Counted from the stretch's first letter, positions 28,659-36,329 are shown. The stretch is 64,000 nt of DNA from Gammaproteobacteria bacterium (GCA_017302255.1 JAFLDV010000001.1:126237-190236), one strand, 5' to 3'. Made by a program: numbers and translations. The notes: generated by a model not told the origin, from the letters alone.

Positions 28659-29555
28659 TTACATATCAATATATTGCGGCCAGCCCAGCAGTGGGTTTTG
28701 CAGCCCTTGTTTGTGCTCAAAGGCATCCAGTTTTTCTGGCGATGCATCTTCCAAGGCTAAACTGCGATATTTACGGGCAAACTCCAAGGTTTTTAGCATG
28801 GCTTTGCCAAAATTATCGCCCAAGTCTTGGCGAATTGCACTGGCGATGCCCGCCGGTAACTCCGCAAGCGCGGACTCGGTTTGTAGCATCAAATAATCGG
28901 CGCTAAACCAGCGGTCTTGCATTTCAATCTGGCGAATACGCTGCTTTAAATCCTGTTTCACTTTGCCATTACTGCAGATGGTGCGGTAAATAATCACCTC
29001 AGCCAACATACCTTCAAGGCTAAAGTGCTCAAACGGATCTAGTTGCGTGTGGTAGAAAAACGATTGTTTCACCACGGCAATCGCGTTGCGGCGATTAGAT
29101 TCAACCAACGCTTGCTGATATTGCTGTAAACCATGCCATTCTTCGGCATCTGGTGGGCTTGAAATATCACGCAGCAATTGCTCATCAACATCGCCGTATA
29201 ACGATTTGCGGCTGCCGGCTTTCGCGCTCACGGTGCTGAGCATATGCCAGCCTTTTTGAAATGGCTTGACCACGCCATCCGCGTTGTTGAGTAAACTCAG
29301 CGCTTTCGCTAAATCATTCCCCGACATTTCGCTCAGCCCCAAACTCACCACGCCGATAATGTCGTGCGCTGCTTGTTCGAGCAAATGCATTTTGTACTTG
29401 TTGTAAAACTTATCGGCAAACTTCAGGCTCATCAGCACTGCTTTATTTTTAATTTCAGCAAGTTGCACACTAGTAAGCAGCTGTTCGGCTTGGCCATAAG
29501 CCAATACTTGGCTAAAAAACGGCCCTTGATTTTGTTCGCGAACGACTAATTGCAT
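28659..29555 (-). CDS. hypothetical protein (298 aa), last gene of the J-domain module
   Basis: Coding-like composition. Start 11 nt after the upstream stop. No recognisable motif. Confidence 0.5.
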   Translation of the reverse strand: MQLVVREQNQGPFFSQVLAYGQAEQLLTSVQLAEIKNKAVLMSLKFADKFYNKYKMHLLEQAAHDIIGVVSLGLSEMSGNDLAKALSLLNNADGVVKPFQKGWHMLSTVSAKAGSRKSLYGDVDEQLLRDISSPPDAEEWHGLQQYQQALVESNRRNAIAVVKQSFFYHTQLDPFEHFSLEGMLAEVIIYRTICSNGKVKQDLKQRIRQIEMQDRWFSADYLMLQTESALAELPAGIASAIRQDLGDNFGKAMLKTLEFARKYRSLALEDASPEKLDAFEHKQGLQNPLLGWPQYIDM

Positions 29556-29566
29556 TTGCGGGTCCT

Positions 29567-30328
29567 TTAGTCCAGAAAGCTAAACATATCATCCACTTCG
29601 GCGTACTCATCAGTGGCCTGATTTTTCTCTTTGGCTTGCATAACGAGCTCAGTCGCAAACTTATTGATGATGTTTTCCCAGCCCGAGTTGTCGTTGCGCA
29701 CCAAACTCTTGATGGCTTGCTCAACTTCCGGGGTTAGCTGGCGAATCAGCGCCAACAAACTGCGTGGGTCGTCAAAACCTAAGCCATGCACTTCTTCATT
29801 TAAATGCCGCTCGGTGTAACTGACCGCTTCTTCTAAATCTTCCTCTTCTTCGTGCAATAAATCATGCACTTCGTCTTCGTCGTCCAGCACTTCGCCGCGA
29901 TAGATTTCGATGAAGGGAATAGATAAATAGAAGAGACCTGCCGCATCTTCAGCGATACAAGTTAAGATTTCTGCCTGTTTTTCTTCGCTCTCTTGCGTGC
30001 GAATTAGGTAGGTCAAAAAATCAAAAGTATGCTGTTTCAGCTCTTCCGCGTTATTTTTGATTTTCTCTTCCCAATACAGCGGTTGTTGGCAGACGATGTC
30101 GCGGATTTTCTCTGGCGTCATCAGTTCTGAAATAATCGATGGGAACGAAATATCGTGTTGGCTATTAATTTGCGTCAAGGTGACGATGTCAATTTGCTCA
30201 ATCACTTCAACGAGTTGTGCATCTGACATGGTGTTCGCGATGATTTCAAAACGTTTACTGGCTTGTTTAGGTTCAACAATCGCCAGTTCTTTGATTTCCG
30301 CAACGGTGATTTCGATTAGATTATTCAT
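29567..30328 (-). CDS. hypothetical highly acidic protein (253 aa)
   Basis: Asp/Glu-rich (DDEDEVHDLLHEEEEDLEE). Its ATG overlaps the upstream stop (TGATG). Confidence 0.5.
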   Translation of the reverse strand: MNNLIEITVAEIKELAIVEPKQASKRFEIIANTMSDAQLVEVIEQIDIVTLTQINSQHDISFPSIISELMTPEKIRDIVCQQPLYWEEKIKNNAEELKQHTFDFLTYLIRTQESEEKQAEILTCIAEDAAGLFYLSIPFIEIYRGEVLDDEDEVHDLLHEEEEDLEEAVSYTERHLNEEVHGLGFDDPRSLLALIRQLTPEVEQAIKSLVRNDNSGWENIINKFATELVMQAKEKNQATDEYAEVDDMFSFLD

Positions 30329-30894
30329 CAGCGATCCTCTCCTTTAAAGCGAACTTCGTCATATTGGTCGTCGTAACCATCTTCGTCGTCTTCATCGCGA
30401 CCTTCGTAGTCATCTTGGGCTTGGTCACGATCGTCGTAATCTTCTTCGCCATGCTCTTCATCCTGACGGTCGTCGGCATCTTTCGCGCTGCGCGCTGGGC
30501 CGTTACCTTGGGTTTCCAGCAGATACAGCACCGCACAAGCTTCAATTAATAAGTCTTGCGAGTAATCGCGGATTTTTTTCACCAATGGTAAATCGTCGTT
30601 GCTAAAGGCAACCGTGACTTTGAAATCGTCCCAAGCCGGCATGGTTTTGGTGTTGATCCAATGCGACCACTTGAGCTTGGCTTCTTTACTGAATTTCACC
30701 CGGCCAAATAACGCGACAGGTAAATATTCCGGCAAGCTTTCCAGCATCTCTGGATCGGCCATCAAAATGGTTTTCATTTTGCCAGTAAATTGCGCCAAGG
30801 CCTTTGGTGTTTCTGGGTCGTTGTAAGATTCAATGTTTTCATAAGCATCGGTTTTTAATTGATTTAACCGAGCAACATCCAGTTTTTTGGTCAT
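30328..30894 (-). CDS. hypothetical protein with poly-acidic C-terminal tail
   Basis: C-terminal 50 aa is almost entirely D/E/Y/R (DEEHGEEDYDDRDQAQDDYEGRDEDDEDGYDD). GAGG RBS before the ATG at 30894. The ORF-track start at 30924 would overlap the upstream gene. Confidence 0.5.
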   Translation of the reverse strand: MTKKLDVARLNQLKTDAYENIESYNDPETPKALAQFTGKMKTILMADPEMLESLPEYLPVALFGRVKFSKEAKLKWSHWINTKTMPAWDDFKVTVAFSNDDLPLVKKIRDYSQDLLIEACAVLYLLETQGNGPARSAKDADDRQDEEHGEEDYDDRDQAQDDYEGRDEDDEDGYDDQYDEVRFKGEDR

Positions 30895-30902
30895 GGAAAA
30901 CC

Positions 30903-31187
30903 TCAAGGATAAAATTGGTCCCACAGCTCTTTCATTGCTGCGGTTGGATCTGTGACGATGACGTTATTAAAGTCTTTGATAAATGCCGCTTTTTGCTTGG
31001 GATCTGACAGCACTTCATAGGCTTGTTTCACCCGCTGTAACTGCACTGCAGCATCGGCTTTTTCGTCTTCGGATAAGCCTAATAACTTATCTGGATGGTA
31101 CTTATTCGACCATCGTTTATAGGCTTTTTTAATTTCTTCTTCGGTGGCGCTGGCTTTAACCCCAAGCACCCGGAAATGGTTAATCAT
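30903..31187 (-). CDS. small J-domain (DnaJ-like) protein
   Basis: MINHFRVLGV...EEEIKKAYKRWSNKYHPDK with the HPD tripeptide and J-domain helix pattern. AGGA RBS before the ATG at 31187. The longer ORF from 31298 would add a hydrophobic N-terminus but lacks an RBS and runs through REP-like repeats. Confidence 0.65.
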   Translation of the reverse strand: MINHFRVLGVKASATEEEIKKAYKRWSNKYHPDKLLGLSEDEKADAAVQLQRVKQAYEVLSDPKQKAAFIKDFNNVIVTDPTAAMKELWDQFYP

Positions 31188-31340
31188 AGCAAATCCTGTC
31201 TTGCTGCGGACACGCTGTCGAACCGCTAAATGGCTGGTGAAAAACACAAATTTCACCGAGAAGCCGATAATAGCAGAAATCGAAGGCGGCAGAGTCATTG
31301 AAATTGGAATTGCGTCATAAACAGTATTAATAAAGGGGTG

Positions 31341-32582: not shown

Positions 32583-32601
32583 GATTTTGCTTCTCCTTGC
32601 C

Positions 32602-32619
32602 TAGCAACTGCGGTTGCTA
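32602..32619. promoter_or_regulatory. perfect 7-bp inverted repeat TAGCAAC-tgcg-GTTGCTA in the leader of the SPFH gene (candidate operator or 5'UTR hairpin)
   Basis: Lies 20-37 nt upstream of the SPFH start codon, just downstream of a possible TTACAA-N17-ATTGAA promoter on the minus strand. Confidence 0.3.
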
Positions 32620-32860
32620 ATTTTCAATAAAGTGGGGCTGTTGTCTTGTAATGGCGCATTTAACGTCAGGTAATGGGCTGGAAAACTACGGTAGTGCTGG
32701 TTTTATTAGAGCACTACAGTTTTCTGCGCATCACCGAGTGGTTCGCTGCGGCATTACTTGACTGGTTTCCTTTTTCAGCCATTTTCATCTTGGTTCATCC
32801 CCTGAACCGCCTTTACCCAGCCCCTAGTTTTTTGGTTTGGAACCCTCACAACTTACTTTT

Positions 32861-32926
32861 GCTTGTCGGAATCGAACCGACACCAACCATGGGAGTGGTT
32901 GCTCTACCAGTTGAGCTATCGCTGGT
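32861..32926 (-). ncRNA. partial tRNA-like element (D-arm plus short stem plus T-arm, no acceptor pairing)
   Basis: Minus-strand RNA GCGAUAGCUCAACUGGUAGAGC...GUCGGUUCGAUUCCGAC has a canonical D-loop and T-loop (GGTTCGATTCC), but the anticodon region is a stem with a 6-nt loop and no complementary acceptor strands exist. Confidence 0.4.
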
Positions 32927-32995
32927 TTCCCGCAAGGGATTCGAACCCTTATCTCCATCGAGATGGCGCTTTTCCAGTTAAGCTAACGGGAATTT
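32927..32995 (-). ncRNA. tRNA-mimic element (acceptor stem, D-arm, T-arm, encoded ACCA, anticodon arm replaced by mini-hairpin); Y-RNA/YrlA-like
   Basis: Minus-strand RNA UUCCCGU-UA-GCUUaacuggaaAAGC-g-CCAUCUCGAUGGAGAU-AAGGGuucgaauCCCUU-GCGGGAA-A-CCA. 7-bp acceptor stem (6 WC plus 1 GU), 4-bp D stem with a GG-containing loop, canonical T-arm, discriminator A plus CCA. The central stem has only a 4-nt loop, so no anticodon. Confidence 0.5.
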
Positions 32996-33227
32996 TTATC
33001 CTCAGTGGCTTGCGGTAAACACTCAGCCAAAGGCTGGTGCTCCAGTCGGCATCAATGCCGAACCTTTGCTGGCCACTGATACAACGAGGGTGCTCTAACC
33101 CTCGTGTCAGATAAATTCGTTGGCGGCAACTAGGTTGCCTGCCTGCATGCCGTCCTTGGCAAAACTTGTGTCTTTGGCGCAAAAGCCCGTGAACACAACG
33201 TCCGTGTTATGACCCTTTGTGATACAA

Positions 33228-34454
33228 CTAGCCTTTGACACACAACACTTGCTTGAGCGTGTGCATGATTTCCACCAGGTCATTTTGGGCGGCCATGACT
33301 TGTTCAATAGGCTTATAGGCCGCTGGTGTCTCGTCTAACACCGCTTCATCTTGTCGACATTCAACACCTTGTAATGCTTCTAAATGCTCAGCCATGGAAA
33401 CGCGTTTTTTCGCTTCAGTCCGTGACATCACGCGCCCAGCACCATGACTGCAACTACAAAAACTTTCTTCATTGCCAAGACCACGCACAATGTAAGAACG
33501 CGCGCCCATGCTGCCTGGAATAATGCCTAGCTCACCTTTGCGCGCACTCACTGCGCCCTTGCGAGTGACCCATACATCTTTGCCGTAGTGATGTTCGAGC
33601 CGAATGTAATTGTGATGACAATTAATCGCCTCGACTTCGGCGGTGATTGGCAGTTTCAGCACATCACACATGGCTTTTAAGGTGCGTTGCATCATTACTG
33701 CACGGTTCGCTTTGGCGAAATCCTGCGCCCAAGCCACCGCTTCAACATAGTCCTGAAAATGCTCACTTCCTTCGCGCAAATACGCCAATTCTTGATCTGG
33801 CAATTGGATAAATTGCCGTTCCATATCCCGTTTCGCCTGTTCAATAAAGTGCGTGCCAATGCGATTGCCGACGCCACGTGAACCGCTGTGCAACATCACC
33901 CAGACCTGTTGGGTTTCGTCGATGCAGATCTCGATAAAATGATTTCCAGTACCGAGCGTGCCCAAGTGATTCAAATTGTTTGTGTTTTTCAAAAACGGGT
34001 GCTTCTCGCACAAAGCCGTAAAGCCAGCATCTAAAGTTGACCATGCATGTTGCACATCCGCTGGCGCATTGGACCAGGCGCCTTTATCACGCTGTCCGCG
34101 TAATTTTGGACCGCCACCATGAGGCACACAGCGCTCAATTTCATGACGCAGCGCAGTGAGTGAATCTGGCAGTTGCGACGCGGTTAAGTTGGTTTTTGCT
34201 GCCATCATGCCGCAGCCCAGATCCACACCAACTGCCGCCGGGATCACTGCATTTAGGGTTGGGATCACACTGCCGATAGTGGCGCCTTTGCCCAAATGTA
34301 CATCTGGCATCACCGCAATCCATTTGTGGATAAACGGCATTTGCGCCATGTTGACCACCTGTTGGCGGGCGTTTGGGTCGAAGGTCACTCCCTTCACCCA
34401 GGCTTTCACCATGGTTTGACCTGGTGCTTGGATAATTTCTGCATTACTGCTCAT
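33228..34454 (-). CDS. rtcB: RNA-splicing ligase RtcB
   Basis: 408 aa. Conserved RtcB metal/GTP-binding motifs (HxGxG-like VMLHSGSRGVGN, CSHGAGRVMSRTEAKK with the active-site His). RBS present. Confidence 0.9.
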   Translation of the reverse strand: MSSNAEIIQAPGQTMVKAWVKGVTFDPNARQQVVNMAQMPFIHKWIAVMPDVHLGKGATIGSVIPTLNAVIPAAVGVDLGCGMMAAKTNLTASQLPDSLTALRHEIERCVPHGGGPKLRGQRDKGAWSNAPADVQHAWSTLDAGFTALCEKHPFLKNTNNLNHLGTLGTGNHFIEICIDETQQVWVMLHSGSRGVGNRIGTHFIEQAKRDMERQFIQLPDQELAYLREGSEHFQDYVEAVAWAQDFAKANRAVMMQRTLKAMCDVLKLPITAEVEAINCHHNYIRLEHHYGKDVWVTRKGAVSARKGELGIIPGSMGARSYIVRGLGNEESFCSCSHGAGRVMSRTEAKKRVSMAEHLEALQGVECRQDEAVLDETPAAYKPIEQVMAAQNDLVEIMHTLKQVLCVKG

Positions 34455-34538: not shown

Positions 34539-34556
34539 TTGCAGATGCGGTGCCAA
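34539..34556 (-). promoter_or_regulatory. sigma-54 (RpoN) -24/-12 promoter for rtcB
   Basis: Minus strand reads TTGGCACcgcatcTGCAA, i.e. TGGCAC-N6-TGCA with exact consensus spacing (GG at -24, GC at -12). Sits about 85 nt upstream of the rtcB ATG and faces the divergent sigma-54 activator gene rtcR. Confidence 0.8.
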
Positions 34557-34691: not shown

Positions 34692-36329
34692 ATGAATAAT
34701 GTGCTGATTGGTGTTTTAGGGTCGCGACTGGACCATGCTGGCTTTAACAATAAACGTTGGGATCGTTGGCGCCCTTCGGTGTCACTGCTGATGCATCAAG
34801 AGTTGGTGATTGATCAGTATGTGCTGTTATACCTGCCAGATGATGAGCCTTTGTTAGCTATCACTTTGTTAGATATCGCGAAAATTTCGCCAGGCACTCA
34901 AGTACGGCCTATTTGCATGCAAATTGCCGATCCTTGGGACTTGGAGGAAGTGTATGGCGTGTTGCTGGATATCTCGTGGGAATTGAACTGGGATATCGAG
35001 CGCAATAACTATTACGTCAACATCACCACTGGCACGCATGTGACTCAGATCTGCCTGTTTTTGTTGAACGAAGCGCATTATCTGCCAGGCAAGCTTTTGC
35101 AGTTATCGCCAAGTAAGCAAAGCATCGCGGGCACCTACCATTTAATCGATTTGGATTTATCGCAATACGATCAAATTGCTTCGCGTTTTGCCCGGGAATC
35201 GGCGGATGCAGTTGAATTATTAAAAGGCGGCATCGCCACACGCAGTGGTACATTTAATGCGCTCATTACTCAGTTAGAGCAGGTTGCCGTGCGCAGCAAG
35301 GCGCCGATATTACTGCAAGGTCCGACGGGGGCAGGTAAATCGCAGCTGGCGAAACGGATATATCAGCTGAAAAAACACCGTGGGCAGCTGAATGGTCCCT
35401 TGGTGGAGGTCAACTGCGCGACGTTACGTGGTGATAATGCCATGTCTGCGCTATTTGGCCATGTCAAAGGCGCATTTACTGGCGCCAATCAATTGCGTTT
35501 GGGCTTGTTGCGCGAAGCTGATCAAGGCTTGTTGTTTCTCGATGAAATTGCCGAGCTCGGCTTAGACGAACAAGCCATGCTGCTGCGCGCTATTGAAGAG
35601 AAACAGTTTATGCCGCTTGGCGGCGATAAGCTGGTGAGTAGCGAGTTCCAGCTTATTGCCGGCAGTCATCAGGATTTATTTGCGCTGGTGCAAGCGGGAT
35701 TATTCCGTGAAGATTTGCTGGCGCGGATTAATCTGTGGACTTACCAATTACCGTCGTTGCGGGAACGACTCGAGGATCTAGAGCCGAATTTAACGCACGA
35801 GCTGGAGAAATTCAGCCGTGAGGCCGGGCATAAAGTCGATTTTAATCGGGCAGCGCGTCTGCAATATTTGCAATTTGCCCACACACCAGAAGCGTTATGG
35901 CGAGCAAATTTTCGTGATTTAAATTCCAGTATCACAAGGATGGCAACGCTCGCCGATGGCGGTCGGATCACCGAGGAGTTAGTGGCGCAAGAAATTGGCC
36001 GACTGCAACATAGCTGGCAACGTTTTTTGCCTGAAACTAGTTCTAGCAATTCCTTGAGCTCGAGCGATTGGCAAAGTGACTGCCACAGCATTTGTGCAGA
36101 ATTTTTGTCTGCAAGCCAAGTTCAAGATCTTGATTTATTTGATCAACTGCAGCTGGCGCAAGTGCTGCAAATCTGCAAGCAAGCGACCTCGTTGGCGGAA
36201 GCAGGCCGCACGCTATTTGCGCAAAGTCGGCTACGAAAAAGCGCCGCCAACGATAGTCATCGACTCAAACAGTATCTTGCGAAATACCAACTCGAGTTTC
36301 AGCAAATCAAAGCGGCAATGATGAGGTAA
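34692..36329 (+). CDS. rtcR: sigma-54-dependent transcriptional activator RtcR (CARF-like N-domain, AAA+ core, C-terminal HTH)
   Basis: Walker A GPTGAGKSQLAKRIY, sigma-54 interaction GAFTGA motif, ESELFGH-like ALFGHVKGAFTGA. N-terminal 180 aa matches the RtcR-specific sensor-domain layout. Divergent from rtcB. Confidence 0.85.
   Translation: MNNVLIGVLGSRLDHAGFNNKRWDRWRPSVSLLMHQELVIDQYVLLYLPDDEPLLAITLLDIAKISPGTQVRPICMQIADPWDLEEVYGVLLDISWELNWDIERNNYYVNITTGTHVTQICLFLLNEAHYLPGKLLQLSPSKQSIAGTYHLIDLDLSQYDQIASRFARESADAVELLKGGIATRSGTFNALITQLEQVAVRSKAPILLQGPTGAGKSQLAKRIYQLKKHRGQLNGPLVEVNCATLRGDNAMSALFGHVKGAFTGANQLRLGLLREADQGLLFLDEIAELGLDEQAMLLRAIEEKQFMPLGGDKLVSSEFQLIAGSHQDLFALVQAGLFREDLLARINLWTYQLPSLRERLEDLEPNLTHELEKFSREAGHKVDFNRAARLQYLQFAHTPEALWRANFRDLNSSITRMATLADGGRITEELVAQEIGRLQHSWQRFLPETSSSNSLSSSDWQSDCHSICAEFLSASQVQDLDLFDQLQLAQVLQICKQATSLAEAGRTLFAQSRLRKSAANDSHRLKQYLAKYQLEFQQIKAAMMR

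Follow-up and report, generated by a model that had tools for sequence, protein, structure and literature searches.

The question raised by the locus described here is what kind of RNA is encoded between the RNA ligase gene rtcB and the downstream gene of a Band-7 (SPFH) protein in a gammaproteobacterium (GCA_017302255.1, JAFLDV010000001.1:126237-190236; the whole analysed stretch of 64,000 nucleotides (nt) is further referred to as the window). A first-pass annotation, made from the sequence of the window alone, had noticed two adjacent tRNA-like elements after rtcB and ascribed to them the architecture of bacterial Y RNAs of the YrlA type. The RNA is a real tRNA mimic, conserved in many proteobacteria, and a divergent member of a previously predicted class, the band-7-associated tRNAs (b7a-tRNAs), and not a new kind of Y RNA. 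Two points had been missed: the Band-7 gene is the constant partner of the RNA, and the two modules form the middle of a larger structured RNA.

Two tRNA-like modules downstream of rtcB

Two abutting tRNA-like modules are located on the minus strand and begin 235 nt past the rtcB stop codon. Every sequence feature listed in the first-pass annotation is present there on this strand. The elements themselves are real and only their coordinates had to be corrected: the start had been placed 230 nt past the stop codon, and module 1 occupies 32992-32923 rather than 32995-32927.

Of the canonical tRNA marks, module 1 has the acceptor stem of 7 base pairs (bp; UUCCCGU/GCGGGAA), the GG-containing D-arm (GCUU-AACUGGAA-AAGC) and a T-arm with the GUUCRANYC motif (AAGGG-UUCGAAU-CCCUU); the discriminator is A32926, and an encoded CCA stands directly 3' of it. 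The position of the anticodon arm is taken by a 5-bp stub, CCAUC/GAUGG, with a 4-nt loop, UCGA. Module 2 has both the D-arm (GCUC-AACUGGUA-GAGC) and the T-arm (GUCGG-UUCGAUU-CCGAC), its middle stem AACCA/UGGUU carries a 6-nt loop, CUCCCA, and its acceptor stem consists of 2 bp versus 5–6 bp in relatives. The canonical 5-bp anticodon stem with a 7-nt loop is absent from both modules of the window.

The Rfam tRNA model scores both modules above its gathering score of 29. Module 1 obtains 47.1 bits (32992-32926, model positions 1-71, E 6e-7 in the 64-kb window), and module 2, 30.5 bits (32918-32865, model positions 8-63, E 0.024, acceptor stem not included). ARAGORN rejects both modules because of their 4- and 6-nt anticodon loops and reports 0 tRNAs and 0 tmRNAs in the whole window; there is no tmRNA match to Rfam in the window either. 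When each module is folded alone, the minimum free energy structure is a cloverleaf, with z = −2.5 for module 1 and z = −1.3 for module 2, the latter with the 2-bp acceptor stem.

Conservation and covariation of the tandem pair

For comparison, 80 genome loci were fetched by alignment of the Band-7 protein, whose family is present in at least 586 genomes. The loci come from Cellvibrio, Methylobacter, Methylomicrobium, Thiothrix, Gallionella, Methylophilaceae and Leucothrix. In the closest relative, locus L081, the Band-7 protein is 86% identical to that of the window. A regular-expression scan found two T-arms 64–80 nt apart in 70 of the 80 loci, mostly 250–500 nt upstream of the Band-7 start. 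Pairs and module features were counted on 62 sequences aligned with MAFFT. In this alignment 94.3% of cells in the two cloverleaves and the downstream hairpin are paired, and compensatory changes occur at 34 of 46 base pairs; in the control with slid 3' partners, pairing goes down to 24–41%.

A covariance model of the tandem pair, R2, was trained on 59 loci with the window excluded. It yields a single full-length match in the window (32994-32856, 84.4 bits, E 1e-21) and, in 79 of the 80 loci, matches on the Band-7 strand upstream of that gene, so the expected conservation in syntenic loci is found. Genuine single tRNAs score only 35–52 bits against R2. BLASTN of the 645-nt spacer against the 80 loci produced only four weak matches; hence the family is seen only via motifs and structure. 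An RNA-first pattern scan of metagenomes was too loose, as 57 of the 80 loci that it listed had no T-arm and were chance matches. Only its few tandem-bearing matches were informative, and all six of these having enough downstream DNA have Band-7.

Module 1 of the family has a 7-bp acceptor stem and a shortened or variable anticodon arm, and the region between the D- and T-stems has the canonical length of 23 nt in only 4 of the 62 sequences. Module 2 starts a few nt from the 3' tail of module 1. Its acceptor stem is a covarying 5–6 bp helix (UGCUA/UAGCA in some lineages, CACUA/UAGUG in others) and its D-arm is essentially invariant; a 5-bp stem with a 7-nt loop is present in 49 of 62 sequences, with 37 different loop sequences among the 62. 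ARAGORN calls most of the relatives' modules tRNAs, with "anticodons" assigned to Asn, Leu, Phe, Arg, Met, Stop or left undetermined. Since these anticodons are erratic even between close relatives, the modules do not decode. Together with the short loops and the ARAGORN rejections in the window, this agrees with the first-pass view of the elements as non-decoding tRNA mimics.

In Methylophilaceae and their relatives (L054, L060, L063, L071, L074) there is a third T-arm-like hairpin about 63–68 nt past module 2, and L075 gives three separate R2 matches. Thus the number of modules is variable.

In L081 module 1 is kept: the ACCA is retained, and the stub stem shows a compensatory change from CCAUC/GAUGG to CCAUG/CAUGG. 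Module 2 of L081 has lost the D-arm, and its T-loop is shortened. Judged by these sequences, module 2 is decaying in the lineage of the window and L081, and the window copy is the most degenerate family member seen.

Such losses are what one would see if the modules were decaying tRNA genes or a functionless remnant of an integration site, and the missing acceptor stem of module 2 in the window, the missing D-arm in L081 and the rejection of both window modules by ARAGORN are in line with this. The tandem pair, however, occupies the same position in 79 of 80 genomes that belong to several orders, its base pairs are maintained through compensatory changes, and the window contains no tRNA gene. 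Moreover, when the window is compared with L081, conservation is much higher in module 1 and the 5' domain described below than where the spacer begins. The concern that the elements might be debris of an att site is thereby settled: this explanation retains practically no probability and is refuted for the family and for module 1, while the decay of module 2 in the window lineage may make it partly true there.

Structured domains flanking the modules

In all the relatives examined, module 1 is immediately preceded by a further structured domain. Its structure was derived with RNAalifold and pair counts. In the family it is a covarying three-way junction, with P2, P3 and P4 paired in 82%, 97% and 96% of cells, respectively. 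P3 ends in a T-loop-like hairpin loop containing GGUUC, one pair of P4 switches between G-C and A-U in 27–28 sequences, and the joining strands AGCGG, CUGAC and GUAUCG are nearly invariant. A covariance model of this domain, R1, was trained on 60 loci, again with the window excluded. It produced one match in each of 18 held-out loci (E from 8e-5 to 1.5e-21). With default filters R1 finds nothing in the window, L081, L082, L084 and L085.

The fold of the 5' domain of the window has z = −5.7 relative to shuffled sequence. The domain is about 95% identical to that of L081, with compensatory changes, while the first 100 nt past rtcB show no conservation between the two. We call it a divergent homologue of the family domain mainly because of its position, its fold and this near-identity. 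The CUGA motif and the three-way junction made a known ribozyme or riboswitch a candidate, which was rejected since no Rfam family matches at E ≤ 1 in the window and five relatives. Likewise, no Rfam family for either flanking domain was found in these sequences.

The 3' domain of the family spans about 250 nt between module 2 and the Band-7 start codon (e.g. L013 5743-6003). The hairpin following module 2, typically CUACC-N7-GGUAG, is paired in 94% of cells, with compensatory changes at four of the four counted pairs. The domain also includes a GCCC-GNRA-GGGC hairpin and the conserved islands CUGCCUU..GGGU, GCGCAAAC and CGCCAUAAAG. A long-range helix of at least 9 bp closes the domain in 30 of 51 loci versus 4.6 expected from shuffles, and is formed by 25 distinct sequence pairs. 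It joins positions +45..+95 past the second T-arm to positions −62..−22 before the ATG; CCUCC-like sequences are frequent in its 5' strand and GGAGG-like ones in its 3' strand. The window copy of the domain was judged homologous by eye; its candidate closing helix is GGGGCUG (32824-32818) with CAGCCCC (32640-32634). Blocks of this domain conserved between the window and L081 include GCCGCAGCGAACCACUCGGUGAUGCGCAGAAAAC and GCGCCAUUACAAG.

Two other candidate features of the 3' domain were discarded. A 24-codon open reading frame (ORF; ~32794-32720) is not conserved in L081. A terminator at the hairpin ~32716-32690 followed by UUUU was not called by the terminator scan, and L081 has a different hairpin-capable sequence there.

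Genomic context and partner genes

Of the 80 loci, 57 contain RtcB and 50 contain RtcR, and no conserved gene follows Band-7. The constant partner of the RNA is the Band-7 gene, not rtcB. The distance from the second T-arm to the Band-7 ATG is conserved at 250–320 nt in most loci; in the window the T-arm motif of module 2, on the strand of Band-7, begins 295 nt before the ATG. The structured RNA is always situated directly upstream of the soluble SPFH gene and usually directly downstream of rtcB.

Of the 33 loci without adjacent rtcB, 14 have a sigma-54 motif (TGGCAC-N5-TTGCA) 111–130 nt upstream of module 1 (in one of the 14 it is at −175), and none of the 37 loci with adjacent rtcB has one. 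Loci with such a motif of their own include L045-L055, L064, L065, L073 and others. Given its fixed distance from module 1, the likely transcription start coincides with the 5' edge of the 5' domain.

The features of the window locus are listed in Table 1. The sigma-54-type element TGGCACCGCATCTGC lies upstream of rtcB, 87 nt from its start codon. Its work as a promoter is inferred, and rtcB, the structured RNA and Band-7 are probably transcribed from it together, as a single transcript. A scan of the minus strand of the rtcB–Band-7 spacer gave no sigma-70-like promoter and no intrinsic terminator; therefore co-transcription with rtcB and Band-7 would be the simplest reading. Neither a TROVE (Rsr) nor an RTC (RtcA) domain occurs among the window's 30 ORFs of 280 aa or more, which confirms the first-pass description of an RtcR/RtcB locus lacking Rsr and RtcA. 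The same description joined Band-7 to a J-domain gene in one "SPFH/J-domain module". The J-domain ORF is AtcJ of the atcJABC operon, whose genes accompany Band-7 in none of the 80 relatives, nor in L081; hence this module is in fact two unrelated units, atcJABC having no relation to the rtc/Band-7 genes.

Table 1. Features of the rtcB–Band-7 locus in window coordinates.
Feature	Coordinates	Strand	Basis or description
rtcR	34692..36329	+	divergent; Pfam RtcR 6.8e-66 (CARF-like domain), Sigma54_activat 4.3e-46 (AAA+ activator)
Sigma-54-type −24/−12 promoter-like element TGGCACCGCATCTGC	34541..34555	-	pattern search
rtcB, RNA 3'-phosphate ligase	33228..34454	-	Pfam RtcB 5.1e-130
5' structured domain	32995..33115	-	fold, identity with L081, family model
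P1 of the 5' domain	33115-33110 with 33000-32995		UUUAUC with GAUAAA
P1a of the 5' domain	33106-33082		inserted hairpin
Three-way-junction core of the 5' domain			P2 AUCAGUGGC/GCCACUGA; P3 UCGGCA-UUGA-UGCCGA; P4 GAGCA...UGUUU enclosing GCC-UUU-GGC
Module 1	32923..32992	-	cloverleaf body 32992-32926, encoded CCA 32925-32923
Module 2	~32858..32922	-	D-arm, 5-bp stem, T-arm, acceptor stem of only 2 bp
3' structured domain and Band-7 mRNA leader	32583..32857	-	conserved blocks with L081
Small hairpin GGUU-CCA-AACC	32834..32844	-	matched to the family hairpin by position only
Band-7/SPFH ("slipin family") protein, 387 aa	31419..32582	-	Pfam Band_7 5.5e-25
atcJABC cold-adaptation operon (AtcJ, AtcA, AtcB, AtcC)	28659-31298	-	four ORFs downstream of Band-7, all above NCBIfam cut-offs

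The only recurrent gene downstream of Band-7 is that of Tpt1/KptA, an RNA 2'-phosphotransferase (Pfam 5.5e-53), located about 34 nt past Band-7 in 5 of 69 loci (L049 7170-7766 plus four more of the Thiothrix type). In Citrobacter freundii (L087 4555-6922) the RlaP nucleotidyltransferase gene follows a related slipin gene. The occurrence of Tpt1/KptA and RlaP after Band-7/slipin genes ties the protein to RNA repair.

A related slipin gene (~39–41% identical) is found with RlaP beside yjbD in 1629 of 5426 complete Escherichia coli genomes. In the E. coli E2865 chromosome (L088 2888-3200) slipin is preceded by a sigma-54 motif, TGGCACGCTTCTCGCA, and by about 300 nt of unannotated leader. The leader contains a single T-arm-like hairpin, UGGGUUCGAUUCCCA; it has no Rfam tRNA match, and R1 and R2 find nothing in it, the sole notable match of R1 in this locus falling within the slipin coding region. 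The Citrobacter slipin unit is divergent from rtcR and has no rtcB.

The presence of RtcR bears on the suggestion that the modules act as a decoy or sentinel, that is, as bait for anticodon nucleases or other tRNA-damaging toxins. Cleaved 5' halves with a 2',3'-cyclic phosphate would then attach to RtcR's CARF domain and boost the operon, or else the toxin would be soaked up. The 5-bp stem and 7-nt loop of module 2 in 49 of 62 sequences of relatives, with the loop as hypervariable as that of a bait might be, are compatible with this role. On the other hand, the RNA lies behind the RtcR/sigma-54 promoter and so cannot be the primary sensor, the modules of the window have no 7-nt loop, module 2 of L081 is nearly gone, and the strict linkage is with Band-7 and not with rtcR. 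Hence we regard a decoy as improbable. A decoy or RtcR-ligand role is possible in those relatives that keep the 7-nt loops, and it fits the window poorly.

Assignment to the b7a-tRNA class

According to the summary given by Wang et al. (bioRxiv 10.1101/312249), a tRNA-like RNA encoded beside RtcB and Band-7, the b7a-tRNA, was predicted by Burroughs and Aravind in 2016 (Nucleic Acids Res, gkw722). The same summary describes it as thought to be functionally analogous to YrlA, as predicted computationally without experimental validation, and as sometimes swapping partners with YrlA. The novelty that the first-pass annotation implied for an RtcB-linked, Band-7-associated tRNA-like RNA is therefore not upheld, such an RNA having already been predicted according to this source.

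As far as the class is characterized in that summary, the RNA of the window fits it on every feature testable here. Both are tRNA-like non-coding RNAs next to Band-7 and RtcB, with no Ro60, and the role of an RNA partner of the Band-7 scaffold in RNA repair has been proposed for the b7a-tRNA. We thus consider it highly probable that the RNA of the window is a member of the b7a-type family. Relative to the summary, our RNA differs in its pair of abutting modules, which stand between a conserved 5' three-way junction and a 3' domain. The window copy is, moreover, unusually degenerate for a b7a-tRNA, with its 4- and 6-nt loops and the acceptor stem of module 2 almost gone. Set against this secondary account of the 2016 prediction, novelty is possible for the tandem layout and for both flanking domains; the domains are absent from Rfam 15, and no description of them was found in the accessible literature.

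The assignment to YrlA had to be abandoned. The YrlA family of Rfam, RF02553, has the gathering score of 69, and its model yields 22.8 bits in the window and 26–39.5 bits in relatives. The match in the window (32953-32901) is confined to the junction between the modules, with the T-arm of module 1 on one side and the D-arm of module 2 on the other. The model aligns only in this way because the T-arm of YrlA precedes the D-arm. In L060 (5541-5650) the model aligns at full length with 39.5 bits, covering the anticodon region and the T-arm of module 1, the linker, and the D-arm of module 2. YrlA thus looks as if the 3' half of a module had been fused to the 5' half of its successor, a hint that YrlA and the tandem b7a-type RNAs are evolutionarily related.

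YrlA and the RNA described here are both tRNA mimics in RtcR-controlled rtcB loci with similar D-arm and T-arm sequences, and both are proposed RNA adaptors between a ring-shaped protein and an effector. The YrlA of Mycobacterium smegmatis has a 7-bp acceptor stem, is cleaved by RNase P and has CCA added (Chen et al. 2014, PMC4201824). YrlA, however, is one module with the T-arm before the D-arm and a long closing stem that carries the Ro-binding motif, whereas the RNA of the window consists of normally ordered cloverleaves, without a long closing stem and without Rsr. A long stem of the 5' and 3' ends with the GNCGAAN0-1G motif is absent, as the covarying helices belong to the two cloverleaves or are local to the 5' domain. 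Near the 5' end CGAA occurs once, in CAACGAAU at 33122-33115, without the G that the motif requires and outside of the conserved helices. No Rsr/TROVE protein was found among the called genes of L081-L085.

The RNA could still be a YrlA-type Y RNA whose Ro60 partner was lost. The D-arm UAGCUCA..GGUAGAGC coincides with that of YrlA, which is near-invariant, the sub-threshold matches reach full length in L060, and occasional partner swaps between YrlA and b7a-tRNA are reported in the published summary (bioRxiv 10.1101/312249). Given that all scores remain below 69, that the modules are ordered normally and not T-then-D, that no long stem joins the ends, and that Rsr/TROVE is missing from the window ORFs of 280 aa or more and from the genes called in the close relatives, we regard such a descent as very improbable.

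The Band-7 protein

No transmembrane segment is evident in the sequence of the Band-7 protein. Its AlphaFold2 model (m2b24ad1429ba, pLDDT 80) comprises two N-terminal beta repeats, the SPFH domain and long helices; the beta-rich repeats occupy residues ~1–150 and have no Pfam match. Foldseek matched the model to stomatin, HflK/C and prohibitin. The major vault protein was aligned over ~430–476 columns including its N-terminal beta repeats, with the TM-score of ~0.4 and rmsd of 13–15 Å, and over the SPFH part stomatin and HflK/C match the model better than the major vault protein does. As modelled, the protein resembles ring- or cage-forming SPFH proteins. No Band-7 homologue was found in the phage collection.

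In the vault particle the major vault protein, which has an SPFH-like shoulder, is combined with TEP1, a TROVE-domain protein, and vault RNA. The likeness to the locus described here lies in an SPFH-type protein associated with a small structured RNA, cage formation and RNA binding by Band-7 being only predicted.

Proposed function

The explanation that we favour overall, at somewhat better than even probability, is that of a b7a-tRNA core under RtcR/sigma-54 control, linked to Band-7 and acting as a ribonucleoprotein (RNP) partner. The RNA of the window would fold into four parts: the 5' three-way junction, module 1, the degenerating module 2 and the 3' domain. Enzymes of tRNA processing would recognise the L-shaped modules; RNase P would cleave 5' of module 1, and trimming would halt at the encoded CCA. 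The processed RNA would then be a dedicated RNA subunit of the Band-7 oligomer and would give a tRNA-shaped handle to RtcB or other tRNA-repair enzymes, analogous to what a Y RNA does for Ro60 in rsr-rtcB operons. The RNP mechanism itself, with the RNA as a partner of the Band-7 oligomer presenting tRNA-shaped modules to RtcB or tRNA enzymes, is proposed tentatively, at rather less than even probability. Still more doubtful is the wider version in which the whole ~0.6-kb three-part RNA is a dedicated subunit of a stomatin-/vault-like soluble SPFH assembly serving RtcB-type repair.

Several observations weigh against this explanation. Expression, processing and binding of the RNA are predictions made from sequence. 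The encoded CCA is not universal: an N-CCA tail past module 1 was counted in 23 of 62 sequences, which is an undercount because gaps in the alignment split some of the tails. The tandem modules are absent from the related slipin loci of E. coli and Citrobacter. The match of R1 to the window is weak (33077-33004, full length, 13.3 bits, E 1.8e-4); it was obtained in an 801-nt search with filters off and lies at the expected place. The decay of module 2 in the window and L081, where Band-7 is intact, implies that this module is dispensable here. Finally, in all cases the RNA is in cis to Band-7, upstream of it by a roughly constant distance and with no intervening terminator, and this arrangement fits a cis-acting leader equally well.

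If it were such a leader, the whole rtcB–Band-7 spacer would be an mRNA element, with no RNP acting in trans. The modules would be RNase P/RNase E signals that separate the rtcB and Band-7 messages and shield the new ends, and the 3' domain would tune translation of Band-7. A comparable arrangement exists at the 3' ends of MALAT1 (mascRNA) and NEAT1 (MEN-beta), where a cloverleaf with a shortened anticodon arm is embedded in a longer transcript. There, an RNase P cut matures the upstream RNA and frees a small CCA-bearing tRNA-like RNA. These elements are eukaryotic, single and unrelated in sequence to the RNA of the window, which is known here from its DNA.

The position on the Band-7 strand, with the second T-arm 250–320 nt from the ATG in most loci, agrees with a leader, as does the finding of neither terminator nor promoter between the RNA and Band-7. 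The closing helix of the 3' domain ends 22–62 nt before the ATG, with its 3' strand often GGAGG-like and its 5' strand CCUCC-like, and, as module 2 abuts the 3' tail of module 1, one RNase P cut would make both ends. A plain processing signal, however, needs no two D/T-arm modules with an invariant D-arm across several orders, and a covarying 75-nt three-way junction is also beyond its needs. Moreover, where the unit has a sigma-54 promoter of its own, there is no upstream gene to separate, yet the 5' domain and the modules are kept. Taken as a whole, the cis-acting leader, although the strongest of the competing explanations, appears to us unlikely, and the Band-7-linked RNP partner is retained as the preferred explanation.

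Implications

The targets and cofactors of RtcB repair in bacteria are still largely open, and the Band-7/b7a-tRNA branch of RtcB systems is, according to the one summary available (bioRxiv 10.1101/312249), a prediction without experimental test. For this branch our analysis supplies exact module boundaries, a covariation-backed fold and two covariance models by which the RNA is recognised in most relatives. The sigma-54 promoter fixes the likely 5' end of the RNA where rtcB is not adjacent. The slipin loci of E. coli and Citrobacter could serve as a tractable experimental system. The lineage of the window marks the dispensable parts of the RNA, as module 2 decays there and module 1 and the 5' domain are kept. 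The two further conserved domains, those flanking the modules, may be the actual protein-binding parts.

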